From: a virus
Lineage: Duplodnaviria; Caudoviricetes
IMG/VR virus record: IMGVR_UViG_3300025018_000410
Span: 1 to 30,776 of that record
Direction: 5' to 3' (one strand)
DNA: 30,776 nt
A program made the position numbers and the translations under genes. Of this stretch, positions 12,298 through 30,775 are shown piece after piece; position 1 is the first letter of the stretch; every line of letters starts with the position of its first letter. The notes below the pieces were generated by a model. It was not told the origin of the DNA, made no database searches, and saw only the letters and a list, made by a program, of their open reading frames with translations.

Positions 12298-12516
12298 TCA
12301 TTTGCTGGTTCGGTCGGCATACCACTGGCCGACCCGGCGGCGGATGTTCAGGGCGTCGGGCTGCTCCTTGTCCATCAATATATCGGTCGCTTGTTCCAGT
12401 GCGGCCATCAATTGGATCTCGTTGCTGTAGGCGTCGCTCGGCACCTCGATTCTTATCCACATCGTGGACCTGCTTTCCTGCGCGGCTTCCGGCTTGGTTG
12501 GGTCGTTGGGTATCAT
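12298..12516 (-). CDS. Hypothetical protein, 72 aa (first cassette)
   Basis: Fills the gap between attC1 and the ASCH gene; its last codons cross the inferred cassette edge G|TTCGG at 12308. Confidence 0.6.
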   Translation of the reverse strand: MIPNDPTKPEAAQESRSTMWIRIEVPSDAYSNEIQLMAALEQATDILMDKEQPDALNIRRRVGQWYADRTSK

Positions 12517-12535
12517 GCTGGGTTAAAATTTAAGG

Positions 12536-12589
12536 GCCGAACTTCCGCTCGAGCCGACGCCTCCGGCGCGGCTCAGCTCGCTGTTCTAC
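12536..12589 (+). repeat. attC-like site 1 (54 bp)
   Basis: R'' GCCGAAC - TTCC - L'' GCT(C)GAGC - CG(A)CGCC TCC GGCGCG - L' GCTCAGC - TCGCT - R' GTTCTAC; two extrahelical bases; the first spacer is 4 nt rather than the usual 5. Confidence 0.8.
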
Positions 12590-12774
12590 TTGCTCCGGGC
12601 CTTCTTGGTTTTCGGGAGCGACAAAAGAGCAAGCCACGCCTCGCGCGTGATCGGCGCGTCGTCCGCCCCGCTCTCGCGCTTGGCCAGCGTTACGCGATGC
12701 ACGCCAAGCCGAGCGGCGACGCTCTCTTGCGTGCCGCGCTTGGCGCGCTCGGCTTTGTATTTCTCGGGCGTCAT
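12586..12774 (-). CDS. XRE-family HTH protein, 62 aa
   Basis: GTQESVAARLGVHRVTLAKRESG; ATGA overlap with the MTase gene; the TAG stop lies within R' of attC1. Confidence 0.8.
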   Translation of the reverse strand: MTPEKYKAERAKRGTQESVAARLGVHRVTLAKRESGADDAPITREAWLALLSLPKTKKARSK

Positions 12775-13325
12775 GCTGCCGCCCCCCATTGTTCCGCCAT
12801 CGCAGCGGCGATGCCCGCGAAAGTCCTCGAGCGTTCTTTCCAGCGGTCGGGGCCGGGCGGCATCCGATGCACGCGGGCCTCGCGGCCCGCGACGATGTTT
12901 GTCGGCGTGAGCGGCGGGAGATTCTTGAGCCAGAGGCAGGTCGCCTTGGTTTCGCCGTGGCCGAATTGCCACGGTTGAATGATTTGGTCCGGCTTGCGGA
13001 TTCGGCTCGATATGATGCTCACAGGATTTTCTAGCGCGATGCGCGGGATCGGCGCGGCCAGTAGCGCCCGCACGAAGTCGAGTGCCTCGCGTTGCTCGGT
13101 CTGTTTGAGCGCGAACCACCGCGCCCCACTGACTGCCAGGTGCGTGCATGGCGGGTGCGCGATCAGCATGTCCCAGCCCCAGTCCAGCACATCGCGAACG
13201 TCGCCCTGGTAGTGATGCCCTGGTATTTCCGTTTCGAGCAGGTCGCAGCTCATCGCTTGATGACCACGAGCAGAGAACGCTTCGCGCACCGCGCCGGAGT
13301 ATTCGCAGGCTACGAGGATTTTCAT
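12771..13325 (-). CDS. Short phage-type DNA (cytosine-5) methyltransferase-like protein, 184 aa
   Basis: MKILVACEYSG (motif I variant), SCD, GDV, DMLIAHPPC (motif IV), ALENP (motif VI), KATCLW, RSRTF.GIA.AMAEQW. Confidence 0.8.
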   Translation of the reverse strand: MKILVACEYSGAVREAFSARGHQAMSCDLLETEIPGHHYQGDVRDVLDWGWDMLIAHPPCTHLAVSGARWFALKQTEQREALDFVRALLAAPIPRIALENPVSIISSRIRKPDQIIQPWQFGHGETKATCLWLKNLPPLTPTNIVAGREARVHRMPPGPDRWKERSRTFAGIAAAMAEQWGAAA

Positions 13326-13645
13326 GCGCTCCATCCTTCGGCGTCGCGCTGGGCGCAGGTTTTCACGCCTTGCACGGGCACCTCGATGTCTCCCTCGATG
13401 TCGTGCAGCCACACGCGGCCGTTGTAGCTCACATATCCGATCTTCGCGCCGGTCTCATCGTGGAGGATTACGTCGCGCCGGATTTCGGACGAGCCGCGCC
13501 CGTTGTTGTAGATTTCGCGGACTACGCCGCATTGCTCAGGGGTGATGAGCTGGAGCATGCTGCCTTTCTTGAGGTAGAGGTCGGGCCACCACTTGGCGGA
13601 AGCGGCGGGCGATTGCGGAGCAGAGACTAGAGTTAGTGTTTTCAT
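13322..13645 (-). CDS. Hypothetical protein, 107 aa
   Basis: MKTLTLVSAP...IGYVSYNGRVW; ATG lies just after a candidate promoter; ATGA-coupled to the MTase gene. Confidence 0.7.
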   Translation of the reverse strand: MKTLTLVSAPQSPAASAKWWPDLYLKKGSMLQLITPEQCGVVREIYNNGRGSSEIRRDVILHDETGAKIGYVSYNGRVWLHDIEGDIEVPVQGVKTCAQRDAEGWSA

Positions 13646-13654
13646 TGCGTCATC

Positions 13655-13683
13655 ACGTTGTAGCGTTACACTACATGAGTCAA
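13655..13683 (-). promoter_or_regulatory. Cassette-internal sigma70-like promoter with palindromic operator
   Basis: -35 TTGACT (13683-13678); -10 candidates CAACGT (17-nt spacer) or TACAAC (15-nt); TGTAG-N7-CTACA inverted repeat (13659-13675) overlaps the spacer and -10. Confidence 0.55.
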
Positions 13684-13724
13684 GCGCGTTTCGGATAGAA
13701 TTTCGTGAGCGTTTTCCAAGCAAA

Positions 13725-13798
13725 GTAGAACCAGCGATTAGAGCCAACGTCCCTACGCGCTACGCGCTCCGGGCCGTGGCTCACTCGCGCTGTTGGGT
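13725..13798 (+). repeat. attC-like site 2 (74 bp)
   Basis: R'' GTAGAAC - CAGCG - L'' ATTAGAGC - CA(A)CG...CGTG - L' GCTCACT - CGCGCT - R' GTTGGGT. Confidence 0.85.
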
Positions 13799-14118
13799 GC
13801 CGGCTGGCGCACGGTCTCGGCTTCCATCTGCCGGCGAAGCTGTCGGGCACAGTGCCAGAGCGTATCGCACACAGCCTCGATTCGCTCGCGATGGCTCGGG
13901 TTTGCTGCGGCTGGCGCAGTCTTCATGTAGCCCGTGGCCTTGTCCTCCCATTCAGAGGCTAAAGCTTCGGCGCTCGACACCGGCACCCAACCAGTCGCCC
14001 CAGCATCAACGCGCCTCACTGGCAGTAATTCGGTGCCGCCTTCTACGCGCTGGACTTGCTGGAGTTGGTGCGTTTCTCCGCTTCTTGTGTCGGTTTGATA
14101 TATTGGATCAGAGTGCAT
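13753..14118 (-). CDS. Hypothetical protein, 121 aa, starting inside attC3 and ending inside attC2
   Basis: AAAGGA RBS-like motif upstream of ATG 14118; open through L''/R'' of attC3, the cassette body, and R'/L' of attC2. Confidence 0.6.
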   Translation of the reverse strand: MHSDPIYQTDTRSGETHQLQQVQRVEGGTELLPVRRVDAGATGWVPVSSAEALASEWEDKATGYMKTAPAAANPSHRERIEAVCDTLWHCARQLRRQMEAETVRQPAPNSASEPRPGARSA

Positions 14119-14171
14119 CGTTTGGTTTTCCTTTCTGCGCTCGTGGCGCGTTGCTGATCTTGTCGTTAGCC
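13985..14171 (+). repeat. attC-like site 3 (187 bp, very long terminal loop)
   Basis: R'' ACCCAAC - CAGTC - L'' GCCCCAGC - ATCAACGCGCC ... about 129 nt ... GGCGCGTT - L' GCTGATC - TTGTC - R' GTTAGCC. Confidence 0.75.
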
Positions 14172-14384
14172 AAGAACGGCCTTGACGTAGCCTTGCCGCG
14201 TGAGCGCGAAGGACACGAAGCCGGGGTTCGTCGTGATGACGGTCGCGCAGCCTTCGGAGTCGAACTCGACCTTGCCGTCTTCGCCGCGTTTCAGATGAGC
14301 GTTACCGCCCATCGGGAGCATTTTGAGAGTCGAGTCGGTCGCGTTTGCAGCGGACTCGGCGTTTGAGTGGAGGATTACTTTCAT
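14166..14384 (-). CDS. Hypothetical protein, 72 aa (cassette gene)
   Basis: MKVILHSN...GYVKAVLG; the TAA stop lies within R' of attC3. Confidence 0.7.
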   Translation of the reverse strand: MKVILHSNAESAANATDSTLKMLPMGGNAHLKRGEDGKVEFDSEGCATVITTNPGFVSFALTRQGYVKAVLG

Positions 14385-14449
14385 GGTTTTCGGAGGTTGA
14401 AATTTCGGAGTCCTAACCACGGGCCACAGAGAACGCCCGTTAGCGTCAT
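14381..14449 (-). CDS. 22-aa coupling mini-ORF reading out of attC4
   Basis: MTLTGVLCGPWLGLRNFNLRKP; ATGA overlaps at both ends. Confidence 0.5.
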   Translation of the reverse strand: MTLTGVLCGPWLGLRNFNLRKP

Positions 14450-14500
14450 AGGTTTGGTTTAGCGTCAGGGGTCGGGCGTCTCTGATTCCGACCGTTCGTC
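14411..14500 (+). repeat. attC-like site 4 (90 bp)
   Basis: R'' TCCTAAC - CACGG - L'' GCCACAGA - GA(A)CGCCCG ... CGGGCGTC - L' TCTGATT - CCGACC - R' GTTCGTC; the loop holds TTAGCGTCA twice. Confidence 0.8.
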
Positions 14501-15147: not shown

Positions 15148-15615
15148 TTACCAGCCCATCTCTCGGATGGTGTTGACGAGGATGGTGGCCAGTTGTCGAT
15201 CGATCTTGAATCGCTCCGTGTTGATCTCCAGCGACCGACGGATGTCGCCTCCGTTTTTCATGCGCTCTGTGGCGGCTTTCCAGTCCATGAACATCTCCAT
15301 CACGTCAAACAGGCTCATGCCCTCGATGCCGTTCGGATAGTGCTCCGGGTGGTGCGAGTTGTTGGCGTAGTGATGGTCGAGCGCGGGTTTCAGTTCGTCC
15401 AGTGCCGCTTTGTATTCGGCACTGCCGTAGGCCATGCTCTTGAGCTTTAGCGTGCAGGTATCAAAGGTCGTCTTCTCCGGCTCCAGCAGCTTGCTGGCAT
15501 CGTGCACTAATCCGCGCATAGACAAATTTCCTATGCAATGGCCTAGTAATTCGTTCACGCGTATAGCGTGCGCCTCCGTGTCGGCGCGCGAGTCGTATTT
15601 GTCGTTTGTGCTCAT
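15148..15615 (-). CDS. HD-like metal-dependent phosphohydrolase (DUF5662-like), 155 aa
   Basis: H...HDASKL...HHY..NSHHPEHY...EM.MDW pattern. Confidence 0.75.
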   Translation of the reverse strand: MSTNDKYDSRADTEAHAIRVNELLGHCIGNLSMRGLVHDASKLLEPEKTTFDTCTLKLKSMAYGSAEYKAALDELKPALDHHYANNSHHPEHYPNGIEGMSLFDVMEMFMDWKAATERMKNGGDIRRSLEINTERFKIDRQLATILVNTIREMGW

Positions 15616-16310: not shown

Positions 16311-17070
16311 TTAATAATCGTAGCCAAAAAGCGGGGCTTGGTGCGCGTGCACCGCTGGGCGAACCGGACGCGCGAGGCCATTATCTCCGGGGGCGTTTTC
16401 CCTTCCGAGCTTGGTTGCCGCCTGGGTGGCCCCACGCTCCGGTAAAGTCTCCAGCGGGCCTTGGTGCAGGTAGCGCTTGCGCGCTTCCTCGGGCAGGCGG
16501 GCCTCGTCGCCCTCTGCGCCCACGCGGATGAAATGGTGCCGCACCAGCCATGCGTGGTCCTCGGGGGCAATCTCGCCCGACTCCAGCTCGTTCAGCCGGT
16601 TCCAGTCCGGCCCGTATCCATTCGTCGGGCTGGTCGCCAAACGGCGCGTTGATGTAGTCGTCGAGGTGGTCCCAGCGCTCGCCGCTCATTCGGTGCCCGA
16701 AATAATCCCACCAGACCAAGCGGGCCACGCTGCTGCGCAGCCACGGCTGCAGGCGCTCGATCTGCTCGCGCCATTCCTCCGGGCGGCGTGCGATCAGCTG
16801 GTCCTTCAGCCTGCTTTCCCGCTGCATCACCTTGCGGTGCCGATCGCTCAATTTCAACGGCGCGGGGCGGATCTCAAACAACTTCAGCCTGCGCCAAATC
16901 TTGCGGCGCGGGTGGGCCTCCTTGGCCGCTTCCCGCTTGCGCCGCAGCCACCAGTTGGCCCGGCGTGCGCGCTGGTTCCATCGCACCGTCGGCGCGTTGC
17001 CCTCGCGCACGCGGCGTGCGGCCTTGCGCGCGGCTATCAGTTCCTCGATCCATTGGTCCGCAGCGTTCAT
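16311..17070 (-). CDS. Arg/Trp-rich hypothetical protein, possibly frameshifted near 16602
   Basis: ORF 16381-17070 looks globular up to EWIRAGL; GC3-rich coding then continues in the overlapping frame (NRLNELESGEIAPED..., stop 16311). Confidence 0.5.
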
Positions 17071-21107: not shown

Positions 21108-22277
21108 TCAAATCTCTTTCTCTGGCAGGCGCTGCAGTGCCCGGTGGGCTCCCTCCAGCTGCGCGTGGGTATAGCCTTGGCTCACGCGCGCGTCCGCGTG
21201 CCCCACGATCGCCATCCGGTCCACGTCGCTCACGCCCGCCTCGTTCAGCCATGTCGACAAACTGTGCCGCAAGCTGTGGATGGAATAATCCGCCAACCTC
21301 CGTCCCTTGTGTTCGCCGTAGGGCTGGTCGATGCCGATGCGCGGCAGGATCTTCTGCCTGAAAATATCCGACAAACTCTTGCGCCCGGTCGGCGGCAGCG
21401 CGGCCAGCTTCGGCAGCAGTAGTCCCTGCTTGCCCGCGTGCCGCTGTAAATCGCTCCACAACTGCGGATGGATTGGCACCTCGTGCCAGTCGTTGGTCTT
21501 GCCCCGGTGCACCATCAGCGTCCGGCGCTGCGCATCGATGTGCTCCGCCCGCATCCGGGCCACCTCGTTGCGCCGCTGGCCGGTGTATCCGGCGATCTTG
21601 ATGAACAAGTGCCATTCCCGCGCGTGGGCCAGCGCCTCGCCCTTGCCCTTGGCTGCGGCCTCGGTCGCCTTGAGCATCGCCTGAAACTGTGCCCACGAGA
21701 ACGGCCTCCGCTGCTGGGCCTGCTTCCGGGCGTTCTTCACGCGCACCAGCGACCACGGATTCTCGTCCACCAGCCCCTGCGTATGAGCCTCGTCCCATTG
21801 CCGTCGCAGCGTGCTCAGATGGTGGTTCACGGTGGCAGCGGCCAGCGGCACCGCCTGCAGCCGGTCCCGCCATTCGGCGGCGAGCCTGCGGGTCACGCAG
21901 TTCAGCGGCTGGGCCTCGAGCTGCGGGTGCCCCTTGAGGAATCGATCGATTGCATCTTGGTAGCGCTCCCGCGTGCGGCTCAGTTTGAACTGTGCCCCGA
22001 TTGCGGCGCGGCGGCGGTGCAGGAAAGCGCCCACCGTCTCGACCTCGGTTGCCTCGATCCCGCCGATCACCTGAATCTCGCGCAGCAGCCTGCGGGCCGT
22101 GGCCTCGTTGAGCCTCCGCTGCTTGGCGGATTGGCTCGCCTTCTCGTAGGCCAGTGCCAGCTGCAATGCGCTTGCCTCATCCTCGAGCCCGGTGCTGAAT
22201 TGTTTCCTCCCGCCATCCGGCATGGTAAAGCCCGCCCACCACTTCTTGCTCCCCGGTCGCTGGTAAACGTAGGCCAT
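21108..22277 (-). CDS. int: Phage tyrosine integrase, 389 aa
   Basis: N-terminal arm-binding-like domain; catalytic residues in TGQR, RGKT, HSLRH, VGH and GYTH. Confidence 0.95.
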   Translation of the reverse strand: MAYVYQRPGSKKWWAGFTMPDGGRKQFSTGLEDEASALQLALAYEKASQSAKQRRLNEATARRLLREIQVIGGIEATEVETVGAFLHRRRAAIGAQFKLSRTRERYQDAIDRFLKGHPQLEAQPLNCVTRRLAAEWRDRLQAVPLAAATVNHHLSTLRRQWDEAHTQGLVDENPWSLVRVKNARKQAQQRRPFSWAQFQAMLKATEAAAKGKGEALAHAREWHLFIKIAGYTGQRRNEVARMRAEHIDAQRRTLMVHRGKTNDWHEVPIHPQLWSDLQRHAGKQGLLLPKLAALPPTGRKSLSDIFRQKILPRIGIDQPYGEHKGRRLADYSIHSLRHSLSTWLNEAGVSDVDRMAIVGHADARVSQGYTHAQLEGAHRALQRLPEKEI

Positions 22278-22474: not shown

Positions 22475-25400
22475 TTAGCGCAGGGAGCGGCGGAGTTCGC
22501 GGTCGGCGCGCTGGTTGATCTCGTCGTCGGTGAGGCGGTCGCGCTGGGTGATTTCCTGCTCGAGTCGTTCGTTGCGGGGCTGGTAGCGGGCGCGGCTGGC
22601 CTCGGTGCGGTTGGCTCCGGGGAAGAGGGCGCGCTCGGCTCCGCGTAGTTCGCTCATGCGGTAGTAGTAGCGGTAGGCTTGCTGCAGCTGCTTGCGCTCG
22701 ACCGGGCTCAGGCTCTCGACGAATTCGCGGCGGAGGTCGTTTTTCTTGGCGAGCCCGGAGAGCGGGTCTTGCGCCCGGATGCTGGATTGGAAGCGCTCGG
22801 CGGTATAGCCAAGGTCCAGAAGGCGGTTGTAGAAGCGGATGGCGTTGGGCACGTCGCCCCGGTAGATGGAGCGGCGGAAGTTGCGCAGCACCTGCTGGTC
22901 GGGGGCGTCGTAGCTCATGTCGCGGGATTGACCGGTCTTCTGGTGGATGAAGTCGTCGGCCTTCTCGCGGATACCGTAGTAGGACCATTGCTCGGGGTCG
23001 CGGCGGCGCACCTGCAGGATGATCTGGCTGGCCCAATCGCCGAGGTCGCGGCCCGAGAGGTAGTCCTTGTCGGTGGCGCGGCGGATGATTTCGGCGACCT
23101 TGTCGTCGGTCATCTGCTGCAGCACGGCCCACTTGACTTCGCTGGCCGGGATGGTTCGGGTGTCGGTGATGTCGGGGAAGGTGCTCTGTTTAAAAGCGGC
23201 GGCGACAAAGGCGCGGGGGACCGGGCCAACTTTCCAGAGGTTGTTGACGAAGTCGCGGGGGAAGCGGCGGAGGAATTCCTGCGTGGCGGTGCCGACCGTG
23301 GTGCGGCCTCGGGCCACGTCGAGCGCGAGGCGGGCTCCTTCCTGTCCACTGAACCAGCGGCCAATATCGCCGAGTGCGGTCTGCGCGTAGATGACCTTGG
23401 TTTTGCCTTGGTCGTCCACGCCGATGATGATGTGGAAGCGGCGCTTGTCTTCCTCGCTGAGCGTGTCCTCGAGTTCGCGCCGCCAGCCGGTGCCGTTCCA
23501 GAGGGCGGTGACGAGGTAGGGGATGGCGAGGCGCAGGAGCACGCCAGTGGCGGCGCGAGTGGCAAAGGTAGTCGCGGCCTTGCCCACGGATTTTGCGGCC
23601 TCGGCTTGGCTGACCTCCTTGGCGGCGACCATGTCGTGCAGGTTGCGCAGGAGGTTGGCGTGGTATCTGAAGTTGATTTCAATCCAGCTGTAAAACGGGA
23701 CGAGGTAGCGGCGCAGCTCGTTGCCTGCCACGCTGATGTTGTGGTAATCACCAAAGGTCGCCAGCGAGATTTCGGCGGCGGCTTGGAGTTGCTGCTGCTC
23801 GGTGGCTCCGGCTTGGGCCTGCTCGAGTTCGGTCTTGGCCTTGGCGAGCAGTTCGCGGTCGGCCTGTGCGGCGGTCTCGACCTGTTGGCGCGGGGCACCG
23901 TGCAGCCGGTAGCGCATGCGCTCGCGGTCGGCGATCGATTGCTCGAGGCGGCGGATCTCGGCCTGCAGGCGGGTGACGTGGGCCGGGGGCTGGGTGCGGA
24001 TGGCCTCGATGTCGCGCCAGTAGGCTCCGGCGTAAACCGGGCGGGCTCCGGCGCGCATGCGTTCCATGTCGGCCTTGAACTTGGCAAATCTGAAGGTGGC
24101 CTCGCGCAGCCGGGAAACGTCGAGGGTGCTGCGGTTGCCGCCGATAAAGAGCGTGCTGGCGCGGCGGGCGAGCTGGCGCGTCCACTTCTGCTTGGTGCTC
24201 TGGAGGGCTTCAAACTGGCGGAGAGCGGAGAGGTCGCCGATTTCGTTGGCGGTGATGGTGTCGAGCACGCCCAGCCGGAAGGCGGCGCGCACGTCGTCGG
24301 TGCCCTTGCCGTCCTCGATGAATTGGCGCACTTCGCTGGCGGCGGTGCTCAGGTAGGAGTAAACCTTGGGATCGGCGGACCAGAGCTTCTCAAGGTCGGC
24401 CATCGTGTTGTTGTATTCGTATCTGAAATAATTCCACGGCGCGAAGAGGATGTTGCGCTTCCAGCCGTTCTGGTAGGCGAGGAAGGGGGCGCTCAGGAAG
24501 TTTTCGCTGCGGGTGCTGTCGCGGCGCAAGATACCGTTGAGGGCTTCGGCTACGGTCTCGGGCACGACCCATACCTCGCGTTCCCCGGCGGCGAGGGCTT
24601 CGCGGATATCCTCGGGGCGGATGCGGATGCCTTGCTGGTGCAGTTGCTTGAGCTGTTCCTGCAACGGGGCATCGCTGAGGGCTGCGCCGAGGTGGCGCGC
24701 GAGGGTGTCGCGGTCGATCGTCAGCTCGGGGTGCAGCGGCATCTTGTCGTCGGGATAAAACAGCGCGTAGCCCCGGTCCTTCCATTGGGTATGGAAGGCT
24801 TCGCGCCAGCCGACCGCGCGGCCATATTTCTTGGCGAGGTCCTTGGCGGCAGCCCGCACGTCCTGCATCTCGTCGTAGGGCTTCCAGTAGTCGTTGGCCA
24901 CGTCGGCGCGCAGGTTGTGGGAGCCCACCGCGACATGGTGGTAATACATGGCCTTGGCGTAGTCGCTCTCGATCGGGCGGGTGCTGCCGACCGGCTTCTG
25001 CAGGTAGCCCCGGAAATCCTCGGCGGTATCCATGCGCACGCGTTCGAGGGCGTTGGCCAGCTGCTTGCCGTCTTTTTCGAGCACGACGTGGGGGAAATAG
25101 AACGGGTTGCGCAGCTCGTCGGGCAGCGTGAAATCGCGCGCTTTCAAATCGTCGGCGATGGCGGCGACGGTATTCTGGTGCTGCTGCAAAGCGCGCAGGA
25201 TGAGTTCGCGGTGCGGGCTGGCGGCGAGCTTGGTCTTGAGGTCGGTGAGGCGCGCGTCGACCTCGGCGGGATTGACTCCGCCGGGCAGCATGATCGGGTT
25301 GCCTTGGTTGTCGCTCAGGTTTTCGGCGCGCCATTTGAGGTCGAGGTAAAGCGCGAGGTTTTGGAACAGGCCGTAGGGCTCGCGGTCGACTTGGCTGCGC

Positions 25401-28400
25401 AGGCTGGCGATTTCATCGGCGAGGGATTGGGGCACGGTCTTCTGCTGGGCGCGGAGCTTGCGGCGGCGGGCCTGCAGCTGGCCCAGCCGGTCGTATGCCT
25501 TGGCGTCAAATTTGCCCACGGCAAACAGCGGGCCGATGATGTCGCTTACTTGGTCGCTGGCTTCCTTCCAGACGCGCGGGGTGCCGCGCGACATCATCTT
25601 GTAGCCGAGGCGCAGCCGGGTGAATTGCTGGGCCTTGTCGTCGGCAAAGGCGGGCAGCTCGGGGATGGCTCCGCGCACGCCCTGCAGGCTGCGTTTGACT
25701 AGGTCGATCTTGCGCTCGAGCCAGCCGGGCGGGTTGGTGGTGTGGCCCTCGACCTCGTCGTAAATGTGGGCGCGGTTCTTGTATTCGTCCTGCGGGGCGG
25801 GACCGGGATCTTCGTCTGGGCCGGGCAGTTCGTCGACCGTGGGGGGCTCGGTCGGCGGGGGCGGGATGAGTCCCTGCTCGCGCCATTTTTCGCGCAGGGC
25901 GGCGAGTTGCTGGCGCAGGGCGGCGGCTTGGGCGGGTGAGCCGGTGGCGGCTTCCTCGGCGTGGCGGATCTTGGCGAGCATGTCGCCCTCGGCATCCTGC
26001 CGGGCGGCGATGGCCTCGGGGCTGGCGGTCGGGGTGATGGGCAGGTCGCCCGGTCGGATGGTGAGGGGCTCCCCGGCGGCAAGCTGGGGCTGCTCCTTGC
26101 GCCAGCCGTCAAATTCGCTGTCGAGGGTGGCGCGCACTTCGGCGCGCTGGCCGAGGTAGTGGCGAAAGGCGCGGCGGCTGGCCGGGTTGCCCTCGAGTTC
26201 GCCGATGCGGCGGTTCAGTTCGCTCAGCTCGGCGTAGAGCGCGTCCTTGCGGTCTACGAGGTCGCCTGCGGGCTTTCGGGCGCTCCGGCGAGATACGGGG
26301 CGAGTTGCTCGCGCATCTCCTGCGGCCACTCGCTTTCCGGGCGCGTCAGGAGTAGCTGCCGCTTGATCGGGTCTAAGGTAATTGATCCCATCTCCGCCAT
26401 CGTGTTGATCGATGAGAGGCGCATTTGCCGCTTTGATAGCAGCGGCACCTGCGGTGTGGGCTGGGAGGTTGATTCCGACGAGTTCATGGCGGGCGGTGCT
26501 GTTTTTCTTTCCGGCGTTTTCTAGCCTGACAATGGCAAAATGGTTCAGTGAGTCAACGATGTTGCCGAGATTCCATTCGTCCTGCGGCAGTCCGTTGGTG
26601 CCGAGGCCGATCGTCTTTTCGGCGAGCTGCGGGCTGTCGATGTGCCACGCGCTGTCGGTATAAAGGACGGCGTTCCCGGCGGCGGCGCTGCGCTGCAGCA
26701 GCTCGCCGGTTTGCAGGTAAAGGCCGAGGGGCACGCGTCCGCCGTCGTATCCGCTGGTGAGGTAGTAGGGCGGGTCGGCCACGGTGAGCACGTTGTCGCC
26801 CTTGGTGGCGGCTTGGTCGTAGGCGCTGCCCTGCTTGACCTCGACGGCGATGTTGCGGCGGCGCAGCTCGGCCATGCCCTTGGCGGCATCGGCGGCATCG
26901 CGCAGGGCGATCGCCTTGATCTTGTCGACGGTGGCGTCGGCGGTCTTTTTGCCTTCCTCGTTCACGGCGCGGCCTCGGGCATTGATGGCGGCGTCGGCCA
27001 GCAGGCCGACCATGGCCTGCAGCTCCGGGTCGGTGTTGGTGGATTCCTCGAGCTTGTTGAGGCGCGCGGCCACGGCGGTGCCGCTGGTGGTGTTGTCGAG
27101 GTTGGCGATCTCGGTGACCTGCTCGAGCAGCGATTGCACGGCGGGTGATTCCATGAGCTGGGGCACGCGGTCGGCGGCGCGGTGCAGCAGGGCAATCTTG
27201 GCGGCGCGGCGGGGCTCGTATTCCCATACCTGCAGCTGCTTGGTGTTGGGGTAGTGCGTCAGGGCGAGGTATGCGCCCCAAAAACCGCCCCCGCCGAAGT
27301 AATCCACCACGGTGTCGATCTTGGCGCGTTGCTCCGGGGTGCTGGTCTGCTCGATGAGTGCGCCCACGTCGACCGCCATCTGGTATTTGCCGCCCTGAAA
27401 TGCGGGCATGATGTCGATCCACTGCTTGATGCGGGCCTCGGCCCCGCGCTTGAGGGTGGGCTCCACCAGCTTGGCGTCGAGGCGTTCGTAGGTGGGCGCG
27501 GTTTGCGGGTCGGCCCCGGCTGGCTGCTGGGTGGGCGCGGGTGCGGCTTGCTCGAGGGCACTGCCGGGGTTGATCAGCGCGTTGGCCAGTTCCTGCTGCT
27601 GGGTGGTGCGCAGCTCGCGGCGCAGCATGTCGATGCGGGCCATGAGGTCGGCCCCCCGTTGCTCGATATCCTCCTGCGGTTCGTTGCTTTCCTTGAGCGC
27701 CTCGACTTGGTCCTGCGCGGTCTGGATCTCCTGCTCGATGTCGGCACTGGTGCGTTCCTCGCGAGCAAAGCGGATATCGGGATTCTCCGGGTCAAAGCTG
27801 CCGCGGTTCTCGGTGGCGTGCTTTACCTGATTGGAGTCAAAGATGGCGTAGGATGTTGCTGCAGGTCCGCTGGAGCCGATGCCGTCGTCGACATTATTGA
27901 TAATCAAACCGTCGTGGCCAGCAGCTTTGGCCTGTGCGACAAGTTTGGTCAGGCGGGTGGCTTCACCGACGTCGCCTTCAAAGTCGACCACCAATGGGTT
28001 CTCAATCTTCAGATATGCGGGCACCACGCTGCCTGCTTCCAATTCGTTGCCATCTTCGTCTTCATAGATGCTCTCGCCATATTCTCTTGGCAGGGTATAT
28101 TCGGCGGCGAGGTCTTCTGAATCCGAGAACCACGCGGTTTCCCTTACCTCCATGGCGTGGCGGGGGCTGATGTAGTTTACTTTTTTGCGGGTCGTGCCAT
28201 GGTAAACCACGAGCGGTTGGCCCTGTTCGTCCACGACCTTGCTGTTGCCAAACCAGCGGCGGAAGGCCGGGTTGTCGGTCTGCTGGCCCTTGGCGAAATC
28301 CTGCCGGGCGGCGGATACGGGGGCTCCCAGCGGGGCATATTGCGTTTTTTGGTCCAGAAATTGGCGAAAATCGATGCTGTAGCGCTTGGTGCGGGTGAAG

Positions 28401-30775
28401 ACGGCGCGCAGCAGGTCGAGGGCTTCCTCGAGCCAAGTGCGGAATTCGTGGGCGAGCTGGCGCAGCACGCTGGGCGGGCGGGCGATGGTGCTCTCGCGGC
28501 GGCGTGCCCAGCGGTCGTTTTCCTCGGCCATGCGCTCGCTCCAGTATTCCTTCCAGTCGGTGCGGGTGCCTGCGCGCAGCTTGATCCGGCGCTGGCGCAT
28601 GGTGGCGAGCCAGCCCTTGGGGTCGGCGAGGTCGGCCTGCCAGCGGTCCTGCAGGTCGGCCTGCGTGTCGGCCTCGAGGCTGTCGAGCCACGCGTGGGCG
28701 GTCTCGTGGAGCACGTCGCGGCGGGTGCGCTCGGGCATGAGGCCGTTGCGATCGGCGCGCACGTTGTTCTGCAGAAACCAGAGGATGCGGCGCTTGGCCA
28801 GATGGGCGGCTTGCTCGGTGCCGGTCAGGGGCACGTTGGGGCCGACGACGCTGCGCAGCAGCTGCGGGTCGCCGACGAGCACGCGGTAGCGGGCCAGCAG
28901 GCCGGGGGCGATGCGGCGCAGGCGGGCTTCAAAGTCATCGAGGGTGCCGGGGTCGGCGGCTTGCGGGGTGCCGCGCGCAAACAGCGGCTGGCCGTCGAGC
29001 ACGGCGGTCTTCATCTCCGCCGGGATCTCGAGCACATGCTGTTGGGTGGTGCGGGTGCGGTTGCTGAGAATGCCCACCACCAGCCGGTCGACGGTGGCAG
29101 CGGCGCTGCGGTTGCCCAGCCTGCGCTCTTGGCGCACGGCGTTCATGTAGCTTTGGGGTCGGCCATCAATACCTTCGTCCATGGCCCCGCGTATGCGCGC
29201 GGCGCTTTCTTGGATCTGCGAGAGGCCGGGGGTGTCGCCATCGGCGTCGGCTTCGCTCACCTCGCTGTTGATGATTTCATCGAGGGCGTTGCGGTGGTCT
29301 TGGTCGGTGAGGTTTTCGCGGCTGACTCCGGCCTCGGCCTGTTGCACCTTGCTGCCGTATTTCTTGGCGAGTTCGTTGGCGATGTTGGGCAGCAGCTTGT
29401 CGTAAAAGGTGCGCATGCCCTGCCCGCCCACGCGCAGGTCGTCGCCCTTGAAGACGCCCGACTGGCCGGGCTGGGTGATTTCGTTGCGGATGCGCTCGGC
29501 CAGTTCCTTGCCGATGAAGTCGTCGAGGTCTGCCGGGGCGATGTTGCGGCCTTGGTCGGTGTTGAGGTTGATGGGCTCCCCGCCCTTGAGGGCCATCACG
29601 TCGTAGTTGCCGCTGTGCAGGCGGCGGGCGCTGATGGCGTCGACCTGCTTGCTCAGGTCGTAGCGCTCGGCCTGCTGCTGGCCGGTGGTCCACGCGATGC
29701 GGTCAAAGCCCTTTTCTGCGGCCCACCTGATCATGCGCTTGAGGGCGAGGCGCGGCCACGAGTTCTTCTTGAACGGGGCATCCGGCACGCGACCATCCAT
29801 GTGGTTGCCCAAGTCCGCGCCCGCATCGCTGGCGTCCTCGACAAAGGCGTTGATGGCCTGCTGTTCGGTCAGGGTGCCGTCGTAGTCGATCTCGACGACC
29901 GGCTCGCCACTGCCGTCGATCACGGTCCAGTTGCCTTCCTCCATGTCGTAGTCGTTGGCGATGGTGGCGTCGACGCGCACCATGCGGAAGCCATCGCTCA
30001 GCTTGGCGTTGCCGCTCTTGCCGTAGCCGTGCTTGGCTCCCTTCTGGTGCCAGTCGCTCTGGATCTCCTCGATGAAAAGCACGCGCGCGCCGTCCGGGGC
30101 GGTGCGCTCGTCAAAGCGCACATGGGCGATGATGTTGGGCCGGTCAAAGTGTTGTGACTGGAAATTGCCCCGGCCCTCTTTTTCCGCGAGGTATTGCTCG
30201 CGGATGGCGTCGCGTTCTACGAGGGGGGTGTCCTCAAAGCGTTTGCCGGTCTTTTCCAGCAGCCACCCGTCAAAGGGCAGGGTGGTTTGTTTATAGGGCA
30301 GCGTCAGGAGTAGCTCGCGGTAGTTTTCTCCGCCCGGCAGGGTGTATTGGGCAAACTTGGTTTCATGGCTATAATCGTAACGGACGCGGCTGCGGGCTTG
30401 CTGGCCCTTCTCGTTGGGCAGCACGGTCTCGGAAACCTGCACGCGGTTTTCCTGCACGAAGTCCTGCACGTCCTGCTTGGTGACGCTGGCCTTGCCCTGC
30501 AGGAATTTGTCGAGGTCGATCCACTCGGCGTATTCCTTGGTGCCCTTGGTCTTGGCGAGGTGGGCGCGCAGCTGGTCGGGCGTGCCTTTGTTCTGCCATG
30601 TGGCGAGCGATTCGAGGATGTTGTCGTGGAAGCCCAGCGGCGAGGTCTCGGTGCGGGCAAAGGCGACGTCATCCGGGCCGGTCTCGTCGCGCGGTTGGGC
30701 GACGATGCGCTCGCCGCGCACGCTGCGCAGCACGGCGTTTTGCAGGTCGTTGACTGATTCGAAGGGAAAGCCCGC
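22475..30775 (-). CDS. Giant virion/ejection polyvalent protein (>2,766 aa; N-terminus beyond the window)
   Basis: Frame stays open to the window end. Domains: EEIQSDW module (about 28980-30650), HExxH peptidase LHETAH (28694-28708), ART-PolyVal-type ADP-ribosyltransferase (27770-28280; FRRWFGNSKVVD...VVYHGT...WFS...GHDGLII...FDSNQVK), Dam-like MTase (about 26490-27410; FQGGK, DYFGGGG, DPPY), long helical C-terminus. Confidence 0.88.
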   Translation of the reverse strand, partial: AGFPFESVNDLQNAVLRSVRGERIVAQPRDETGPDDVAFARTETSPLGFHDNILESLATWQNKGTPDQLRAHLAKTKGTKEYAEWIDLDKFLQGKASVTKQDVQDFVQENRVQVSETVLPNEKGQQARSRVRYDYSHETKFAQYTLPGGENYRELLLTLPYKQTTLPFDGWLLEKTGKRFEDTPLVERDAIREQYLAEKEGRGNFQSQHFDRPNIIAHVRFDERTAPDGARVLFIEEIQSDWHQKGAKHGYGKSGNAKLSDGFRMVRVDATIANDYDMEEGNWTVIDGSGEPVVEIDYDGTLTEQQAINAFVEDASDAGADLGNHMDGRVPDAPFKKNSWPRLALKRMIRWAAEKGFDRIAWTTGQQQAERYDLSKQVDAISARRLHSGNYDVMALKGGEPINLNTDQGRNIAPADLDDFIGKELAERIRNEITQPGQSGVFKGDDLRVGGQGMRTFYDKLLPNIANELAKKYGSKVQQAEAGVSRENLTDQDHRNALDEIINSEVSEADADGDTPGLSQIQESAARIRGAMDEGIDGRPQSYMNAVRQERRLGNRSAAATVDRLVVGILSNRTRTTQQHVLEIPAEMKTAVLDGQPLFARGTPQAADPGTLDDFEARLRRIAPGLLARYRVLVGDPQLLRSVVGPNVPLTGTEQAAHLAKRRILWFLQNNVRADRNGLMPERTRRDVLHETAHAWLDSLEADTQADLQDRWQADLADPKGWLATMRQRRIKLRAGTRTDWKEYWSERMAEENDRWARRRESTIARPPSVLRQLAHEFRTWLEEALDLLRAVFTRTKRYSIDFRQFLDQKTQYAPLGAPVSAARQDFAKGQQTDNPAFRRWFGNSKVVDEQGQPLVVYHGTTRKKVNYISPRHAMEVRETAWFSDSEDLAAEYTLPREYGESIYEDEDGNELEAGSVVPAYLKIENPLVVDFEGDVGEATRLTKLVAQAKAAGHDGLIINNVDDGIGSSGPAATSYAIFDSNQVKHATENRGSFDPENPDIRFAREERTSADIEQEIQTAQDQVEALKESNEPQEDIEQRGADLMARIDMLRRELRTTQQQELANALINPGSALEQAAPAPTQQPAGADPQTAPTYERLDAKLVEPTLKRGAEARIKQWIDIMPAFQGGKYQMAVDVGALIEQTSTPEQRAKIDTVVDYFGGGGFWGAYLALTHYPNTKQLQVWEYEPRRAAKIALLHRAADRVPQLMESPAVQSLLEQVTEIANLDNTTSGTAVAARLNKLEESTNTDPELQAMVGLLADAAINARGRAVNEEGKKTADATVDKIKAIALRDAADAAKGMAELRRRNIAVEVKQGSAYDQAATKGDNVLTVADPPYYLTSGYDGGRVPLGLYLQTGELLQRSAAAGNAVLYTDSAWHIDSPQLAEKTIGLGTNGLPQDEWNLGNIVDSLNHFAIVRLENAGKKNSTARHELVGINLPAHTAGAAAIKAANAPLIDQHDGGDGINYLRPDQAAATPDAPGKRVAAGDARATRPVSRRSARKPAGDLVDRKDALYAELSELNRRIGELEGNPASRRAFRHYLGQRAEVRATLDSEFDGWRKEQPQLAAGEPLTIRPGDLPITPTASPEAIAARQDAEGDMLAKIRHAEEAATGSPAQAAALRQQLAALREKWREQGLIPPPPTEPPTVDELPGPDEDPGPAPQDEYKNRAHIYDEVEGHTTNPPGWLERKIDLVKRSLQGVRGAIPELPAFADDKAQQFTRLRLGYKMMSRGTPRVWKEASDQVSDIIGPLFAVGKFDAKAYDRLGQLQARRRKLRAQQKTVPQSLADEIASLRSQVDREPYGLFQNLALYLDLKWRAENLSDNQGNPIMLPGGVNPAEVDARLTDLKTKLAASPHRELILRALQQHQNTVAAIADDLKARDFTLPDELRNPFYFPHVVLEKDGKQLANALERVRMDTAEDFRGYLQKPVGSTRPIESDYAKAMYYHHVAVGSHNLRADVANDYWKPYDEMQDVRAAAKDLAKKYGRAVGWREAFHTQWKDRGYALFYPDDKMPLHPELTIDRDTLARHLGAALSDAPLQEQLKQLHQQGIRIRPEDIREALAAGEREVWVVPETVAEALNGILRRDSTRSENFLSAPFLAYQNGWKRNILFAPWNYFRYEYNNTMADLEKLWSADPKVYSYLSTAASEVRQFIEDGKGTDDVRAAFRLGVLDTITANEIGDLSALRQFEALQSTKQKWTRQLARRASTLFIGGNRSTLDVSRLREATFRFAKFKADMERMRAGARPVYAGAYWRDIEAIRTQPPAHVTRLQAEIRRLEQSIADRERMRYRLHGAPRQQVETAAQADRELLAKAKTELEQAQAGATEQQQLQAAAEISLATFGDYHNISVAGNELRRYLVPFYSWIEINFRYHANLLRNLHDMVAAKEVSQAEAAKSVGKAATTFATRAATGVLLRLAIPYLVTALWNGTGWRRELEDTLSEEDKRRFHIIIGVDDQGKTKVIYAQTALGDIGRWFSGQEGARLALDVARGRTTVGTATQEFLRRFPRDFVNNLWKVGPVPRAFVAAAFKQSTFPDITDTRTIPASEVKWAVLQQMTDDKVAEIIRRATDKDYLSGRDLGDWASQIILQVRRRDPEQWSYYGIREKADDFIHQKTGQSRDMSYDAPDQQVLRNFRRSIYRGDVPNAIRFYNRLLDLGYTAERFQSSIRAQDPLSGLAKKNDLRREFVESLSPVERKQLQQAYRYYYRMSELRGAERALFPGANRTEASRARYQPRNERLEQEITQRDRLTDDEINQRADRELRRSLR
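26254..26487 (-). CDS. Candidate nested (overprinted) 77-aa gene inside the giant gene
   Basis: GC3 is about 78% in this frame versus about 51% in the host frame (hand count); upstream TTGACT-16-CATTGT promoter-like motif; start context identical to the gene at 3195. Confidence 0.5.
   Translation of the reverse strand: MNSSESTSQPTPQVPLLSKRQMRLSSINTMAEMGSITLDPIKRQLLLTRPESEWPQEMREQLAPYLAGAPESPQATS

Follow-up and report, generated by a model that had tools for sequence, protein, structure and literature searches.

The 30,776-bp viral contig IMGVR_UViG_3300025018_000410 (linear, approximately 80% complete; this whole stretch of DNA is herein referred to as the window) carries four attC sites, numbered 1–4 and arranged as an array of cassettes (Table 1). 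By their sequence, these are real integron-type attC sites. By the criteria tested, the array is a genuine phage CALIN (integrase-less attC cluster) and not a complete integron, and its cassettes are not canonical. The feature that distinguishes it from bacterial arrays is reversed gene polarity, which the original prediction of an integron-type array in this DNA had not noticed. Most likely, this CALIN with reversed cassettes exchanges whole cassettes at G|TT by means of an integron integrase (IntI) that acts in trans and comes from the host or from a co-infecting phage with intI.

The original prediction had described four sites of the same orientation with the layout R''-spacer-L''-loop-L'-spacer-R', and all four were confirmed on the plus strand at the coordinates it gave. 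Each forms an imperfect hairpin with an R'' box (ending in AAC), an R' box (beginning with GTT), and paired L''/L' boxes. At all sites the extrahelical bases, spaced by 6 bp, lie in the left arm on the plus strand (L'' arm) and determine which strand is the bottom one. The second extrahelical base is A (T on the bottom strand) at sites 1, 2, and 4; site 3 has a 3-nt bulge. The first one is C at sites 1 and 3 and A at sites 2 and 4 on the top strand, that is, G and T, respectively, on the bottom strand. The canonical base at this position is G on the bottom strand, which was also found in the class 1 control sites, and T was also found at the intI-linked viral sites described below.

The sites were searched for by a geometry scan on both strands, with the pattern AAC, spacer, 3 bp, extra base, 5–7 bp, extra base, 4 bp, loop, and GTT. 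Five matches with a score of at least 11 were found in the whole window, four of them being sites 1–4, all on the plus strand. Markov-simulated windows gave an expectation of 2.4 matches per 30.8 kb, and P was approximately 2e-6 for four same-strand matches in 2.2 kb, for a scan designed after the sites were known. The fifth match (16873–16960) was rejected as an attC site, being without support from the covariance model R2. In a control record, the scan found seven class 1 sites, all on the sense strand of their genes. Sites 1–4 lie on one strand and span 1965 bp, within the CALIN rule that asks for two attC sites or more within 4 kb.

The model R2 was built from 55 sites that lie upstream of intI on viral contigs other than this one, so that the window contributed no sequence to it. 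The 15 named pairs of its training alignment are 93% paired, with 203 double-sided changes, figures that are descriptive for sites selected for pairing. The covariance-model check called for in the original prediction gave 29.6–42.6 bits for the four sites, all on the minus (bottom) strand, and 9.4 bits for the next match in the window. Among known attC sites, those of class 1, Vibrio, and Shewanella are likewise picked up by R2, along with three TJE1 sites (21–31 bits); the model misses some published phage sites, those of P12002L being barely detected (13.8 bits).

The complementarity between sites follows the offset expected for integrated circles in the original prediction, and both parts of that claim were borne out: R' and R'' match poorly inside sites 1–4 (runs of 4, 3, 3, and 3 bp), and each R' matches the next R'' over 9, 12, and 5 bp. 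The chance of these offset runs, estimated from 55,544 GTT/AAC pairs in the window, is 2.5e-4, 3.6e-5, and 0.066, so that the 5-bp run alone is not significant. A GTT at 12308 matches the site-1 R'' over 6 bp (chance 0.018 per pair), and its G|TT is a candidate entry point. Beyond GTT/AAC the sites share almost nothing, and no direct-repeat family linking them was found among the 20 largest listed. The probability of the recombinogenic fold at sites 1–4 was 0.66, 0.08, 0.0015, and 0.06 within the array and 0.94, 0.68, 0.33, and 0.63 after in-silico circle closure; for four class 1 control sites it was 0.05–0.83. That the hairpins arose by chance, or serve between the early genes as regulatory RNA elements such as terminators or leaders, is scarcely credible. 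They do lie at gene borders, some overlapping coding sequence, but this explanation is opposed by the R2 scores, the offset complementarity, and the exchange at G|TT described below, and neither a relevant Rfam family for the hairpins nor an excess of terminators in the region was found.

A natural replacement of one whole cassette was found by comparing a 19-nt junction pattern with a metagenome collection. Five loci matched: the window itself, two chance matches, L015, which has the window allele of the junction, and L014, which represents a second genotype. L014 is the same as the window over 13667–13794 (one single-nucleotide polymorphism (SNP), at 13790), continues directly after the site-2 GTT with a different cassette, B', and rejoins the window at the G of the site-3 GTT (14165–14267, 103 identical bases). 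Thus, both borders of the replacement of B by B' are exactly at G|TT, that of site 2 on the left and that of site 3 on the right, which implies that an attC site travels with the DNA on its left. With a single SNP in the 231 bases that both genotypes share, the exchange is recent. Both genotypes were also traced in sequencing runs. In run X1, a B/B' bubble consists of an 846-bp contig at depth 4.7 next to the main 435-bp contig at depth 34.7. Run X4, from a different study, carries the B'–C junction, and run X3 bridges the junction between site 2 and B; runs X5 and X6 contain phage fragments only. L014 and these contigs provide the relatives differing exactly at G|TT that the original prediction had proposed to look for. 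Homologues of B' were found between or beside attC sites in contigs with intI.

Movement of cassettes between attC-derived sites by a phage tyrosine integrase, or by homologous or microhomology recombination between related phages, would account for the replacement in another way. Homologous recombination cannot create both G|TT junctions unless the donor already has both, although an existing B' allele could spread by homologous exchange via the shared flanks. A tyrosine integrase is indeed encoded on the contig, but it is without the IntI insertion, and almost no sequence beyond GTT/AAC is common to the sites. This alternative is therefore considered very improbable. The end of contig L001 at window position 12586 might have marked a switch to an empty array in which 14495 follows site 1, but this reading was rejected, the 61-bp contig of run X1 fitting a single-base bubble at 12587. 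This position, inside the site-1 R' box, is likely a single-base variant in run X1.

All seven cassette open reading frames (ORFs), six on the minus strand of the window and one in B', are antisense to their attC sites and collinear with the phage operon. Because the attC sites are on the plus strand, a canonical cassette gene would be on the plus strand as well. The same polarity was found in viral loci that have their own intI. These loci were collected with a profile of seven phage IntIs, and the best 80 of at least 556 confirmed loci were analyzed. In these, 95 of 98 upstream sites are on the minus strand when intI is on the plus strand, which is the canonical geometry of intI and attC. 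Among 107 sites, 82 have a called gene, antisense in 69 cases and sense in 13. Counted per locus, antisense sites predominate in 34 of the 40 scorable loci; a further 40 loci have no call. As a control, 20 chromosomal loci of Planctomycetota were used; 151 genomes gave 34 matches, from which these loci were chosen for the room on their contigs. Here 14 of the 16 called sites were sense and two antisense (25 sites had no call), and none of the seven scorable loci was antisense; the viral and chromosomal loci differ with P of approximately 2e-5. In the class 1 integron control, none of seven sites was antisense. The minority of sense cassettes in viral loci is mostly found downstream of intI on the plus strand (8 sites), as in Virus Rctr41k. 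Together, these counts indicate that following the direction of phage transcription may be a common rule for cassette genes. Additionally, viral intI starts approximately 30–120 nt from the first GTT, a short gap that suggests read-through from the phage operon.

In a quick tree of IntIs with 107 rows (117 minus 10 near-duplicates), the antisense label needs 25 changes, and strong branches impose at least 17 of these. Viral IntIs occur in scattered positions of this tree, some being related to IntI1, and a single origin of phage IntIs or of the reversed layout is not supported by this scatter.

Several individual loci of these searches deserve mention. The largest phage array found here (L072/L073, G003), in a complete 66-kb viral record, extends over 10 kb up to intI and comprises approximately 17 attC sites of reversed polarity. 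A Mu-like contig that has no intI (L081:934–6254, G008) carries six reversed attC sites directly after transposase and DNA-transposition genes. In Virus Rctr41k (L090, KX853513, 4680–10101), an IntI-like gene annotated as xerD is followed by five sense attC sites and methyltransferases; this array is absent from the tables of Qi et al. (2023; PMC9892861) that were covered. Homogeneous arrays of the site-2 attC family were found in L020, L039, and L043, all classed as viral; L020 is sense where genes were called, and the three arrays look like host chromosomal ones. Some phage attC loops (e.g., in L023, L036, L042, L056, and L057) contain an AT-rich stretch with CAT, so that the start of the antisense gene seems to lie within its own attC site; L057 is without a scanner site. 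A second viral pattern scan yielded 19 loci, 14 of which had no scanner site at the match and were set aside as probable chance matches.

No intI was found on the contig by a TIGR02249 search of its 30.8 kb, which represent approximately 80% of the genome, nor by the same search on a near-identical 9.9-kb contig of the phage. The only candidate recombinase, the tyrosine integrase, scores 18.6 bits against TIGR02249 (cut-off 265), and the IntI-specific insertion motif is absent from its alignment; on this evidence it is an ordinary phage integrase and not an IntI, as the original prediction had it. It is likely a bystander to the cassette array. IntI-like genes are present in other phages with the same kind of attC sites. 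A site-2-type motif matched 39 viral loci, and TIGR02249 was searched in the records of 30 such loci together with the phage's second contig and one cell genome. Matches were found in 10 of the 30 viral records, seven of them above the cut-off and some being duplicates. The IntI-like proteins of these records carry the IntI insertion, and their neighbors are portal, head, RusA, primase, and replication genes. The original prediction had proposed that the phage uses a host IntI in trans. Its first part, integron cassettes exchanged at G|TT, is upheld by L014, the sequencing runs, and R2. That the enzyme comes from the host is only one possibility: since 10 of the 30 viral records of this attC family have an IntI-like gene, an enzyme acting in trans from another phage is an equal candidate.

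These IntI-like genes, together with the incompleteness of the contig, would also be compatible with a phage integron whose own intI is in the unsequenced part or was recently lost, B and B' being leftovers of a perhaps frozen array. This is unlikely. In phage loci, intI is usually located directly at the attI end, and here that position is occupied by ASCH-like, HNH, and replication genes; the near-identical contig also has no intI, and the exchange is recent.

A number of observations weigh against exchange by an IntI acting in trans. A sequence-only model, R1, made from 11 known bacterial attC sites, gave no window match better than E 0.59, its alignment having no pairs by RNAalifold. Sites 2 and 4 depart from the canonical first extrahelical base, the fold of site 3 within the array is poor, and the offset complementarity of B' is limited to the 3-bp core. 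No excised circle and no empty A–C junction were found in the contigs of six runs, contigs being prone to drop rare forms. The polarity counts rest on an in-house gene caller and scanner, with a query profile made from phage IntIs. Finally, the nearest named integrase homologue, the pointer to the host, is a protein of Opitutaceae with only 41% identity.

If cassettes are exchanged at G|TT by an IntI in trans, this enzyme would bind the folded minus strand and excise or insert circles. The two genotypes could stem from an A-B-B'-C array that lost different cassettes, or from insertions made separately behind site 2. Because the cassette genes are reversed, they would be read from phage operon promoters on the right and from a putative cassette-A promoter, and not from the integron promoter Pc. 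The recombinogenic strand would be the coding, non-template one, so early transcription or replication may expose it. Swaps of orphan methyltransferases might let the population track host restriction systems, and the reversed polarity might silence host defense cassettes that land in the array.

Integrons are known as adaptation devices of bacteria. The locus described here is a case of whole cassettes being exchanged within a population of phages, the swapped cargo being a methyltransferase, and its reversed polarity is common to most of the scorable viral intI loci examined. If the exchange depends on IntI, phages use the same machinery for counter-defense, with a cassette pool separated from that of the host by orientation. 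Integrons have recently been seen as stores of anti-phage defense cassettes, according to the part of that preprint considered (bioRxiv 10.1101/2024.07.02.601719). Tentatively, and on balance with some doubt, temperate phages may package resident genes as reversed cassettes, with attC in front of the gene, and trade them via host or phage IntI. In that case, owing to the reversed polarity, phage cassettes would stay silent in host integrons, as would anti-phage cassettes of the host in phages. Reversed phage arrays would be tractable material on how a gene acquires its attC site, and two cases would then be snapshots of cassette genesis, a long-open question. The first is a DUF5662 gene, a flush-packed resident at 15148–15615 of the window, whose homologue at L087:12629–13099, with 62% identity, is by contrast a cassette antisense to its attC site; this contrast points to possible entry of a resident gene into cassettes, or to site loss. 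The second is the core of cassette B. Its ORF starts in the site-3 loop and ends in site 2, and what eight homologues have in common is confined to the core bounded by the two R boxes, with divergence on both sides. This suggests that the flanking attC arms, whichever they are, encode the ends of the ORF.

Clusters of attC sites in phages are known. In the sections of Qi et al. (2023; PMC9892861) considered, 17 phage CALINs are reported, with five methyltransferase cassettes, and IntI1 recombined five of six phage sites tested, two of these being TJE1 sites. Like the window array, these are attC clusters without intI and with orphan DNA methyltransferase cargo. The text of these sections describes no antisense cassettes, intI in phage operons, or natural genotype swaps. 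By R2, the TJE1 array of that study is sense and canonical, unlike the window, whereas ctTUS972 (MW202573, L260 2069–3738; their Figure 2D) is antisense, like the window, a feature uncommented in the sections considered. Reversed phage cassette polarity or intI in a phage operon was not found described in a literature search, subscription journals being outside its coverage.

In the part of Nivina et al. (2016; PMC5027507) considered, the folded bottom strand is where IntI cuts, at R', and the opposite gene orientation prevents expression from Pc; a CALIN is defined by at least two attC sites and no intI in the corresponding part of Cury et al. (2016; PMC4889954). Following the same sections, canonical arrays, both class 1 and sedentary chromosomal ones, share with the window the attC anatomy, the extrahelical bases in the L'' arm, the G|TT crossover, and the offset R'/R'' match. 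Canonical cassettes are mostly described there as a single promoterless ORF in sense with Pc (PMC5027507; PMC4889954). In contrast, all ORFs of the window are reversed, stop codons lie within the R' box in cassettes A, C, and B', one ORF extends across the two sites on either side of it, and three genes share a single cassette. The phage intI loci (L070, L073, L074, L076, L077, L079, and L086, among the 80) resemble the window in attC families, reversed polarity, and cargo, which comprises methyltransferases, helix-turn-helix (HTH) modules, and small phage ORFs amid replication and head genes. Unlike the window contig, which is without intI, they have intI, and with it a short stretch resembling attI, where the array ends downstream.

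Table 1. Coordinates of the attC sites, cassettes, and other features of the window, with cassette B' of L014
Feature	Position	Strand	Description
attC site 1	12536–12589	+	54 nt, aadA-like geometry; G|TT at 12583/12584; scan 14.0; R2 37.7 bits
attC site 2	13725–13798	+	74 nt; G|TT at 13792/13793; R2 29.6 bits
attC site 3	13985–14171	+	187 nt; G|TT at 14165/14166; R2 38.4 bits
attC site 4	14411–14500	+	90 nt; G|TT at 14494/14495, array right end; R2 42.6 bits
Cassette 0, putative	12309–12583	attC on +	275 bp; left border G|TT 12308/12309 (inferred); attC is site 1
72-aa ORF of cassette 0	12298–12516	antisense	Stop 10 nt beyond the border
Cassette A	12584–13792	attC on +	1209 bp; three coupled antisense genes and site 2; 9-bp offset match
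Cro/XRE-type HTH protein, 62 aa	12586–12774	−	PF01381, E 2.9e-5
Phage DNA methyltransferase, 184 aa	12771–13325	−	phrog_757, E 4e-74; no Pfam match
Hypothetical protein, 107 aa	13322–13645	−	First gene of cassette A; no Pfam/PHROG match
Operator-like palindrome and TTGACT −35-like hexamer	13659–13683	−	Palindrome 13659–13675, hexamer 13678–13683
Cassette B	13793–14165	attC on +	373 bp; 12-bp offset match
121-aa ORF of cassette B	13753–14118	−	Starts in site-3 loop, ends in site 2
Cassette B' (L014)	replaces B		784 bp G to G; antisense 231-aa C5 methyltransferase, PF00145, E 1.4e-25; own 57-nt attC, 31.2 bits
Cassette C	14166–14494	attC on +	329 bp; 5-bp offset match
72-aa ORF of cassette C	14166–14384	antisense	TAA is the complement of the R' box; no family match
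Replication initiator	10.1–10.8 kb	−	In minus-strand gene run
Phage tyrosine integrase	21108–22277	−	PF00589, phrog_1
Small-gene run	in minus-strand gene run	−	

The cassette genes are of several types. For the ORF of cassette 0, no relatives besides itself were found. Homologues of the cassette-A HTH protein were found at or near attC sites in L041, L133, and L247. The 184-aa methyltransferase carries PPC and ENP motifs, and we take it to be of C5 type. For the 107-aa protein, look-alikes in the Atlas were found only at 0.85–0.86, in viral hypothetical clusters. The palindrome and hexamer upstream of it are a candidate cassette-A promoter; the cassette of L041 has the same palindrome and −35-like layout before its HTH module (promoter-ORF-HTH), and a sigma-70 scan found no site at this candidate or as Pc. 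In L014, a 243-aa ORF in another frame (195–926) overlaps the B' methyltransferase gene and ends in a WEHLMGWP motif, with no Pfam match. It presumably resembles the alternative-frame beta subunit of M.EcoHK31I.

Nearly all called genes of the contig are on the minus strand, and genes for the terminase small subunit and the major capsid protein were also identified. An aquifer metagenome run is the best match for the phage among the sequencing runs and may be where it comes from, and no RNA dataset containing the phage was found among the runs listed. The same integrase is also encoded on a 40,837-bp contig. Among 46 integrase homologues, the sole named organism is an Opitutaceae bacterium (41%), a weak pointer to a host in Verrucomicrobiota. 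Zavarzinella was rejected as a host, being a single match of the genome-collection pattern without a site call by the attC scanner. No relative with an empty site was found: searches with the integrase and with a cassette-B profile gave no viral locus. L204, the phage nearest to this one (identity of 65% for the 515-aa putative terminase and 75% for the capsid), ends too early and has no R2 match, and the ASCH-like and cassette-C proteins as queries gave distant or spurious matches only. No iterons that would place a replication origin were found in the contig. A protein of 2752 aa and polyvalent type is encoded at 22475–30733 of the window, with an ART-PolyVal domain and an endolysin-like stretch.

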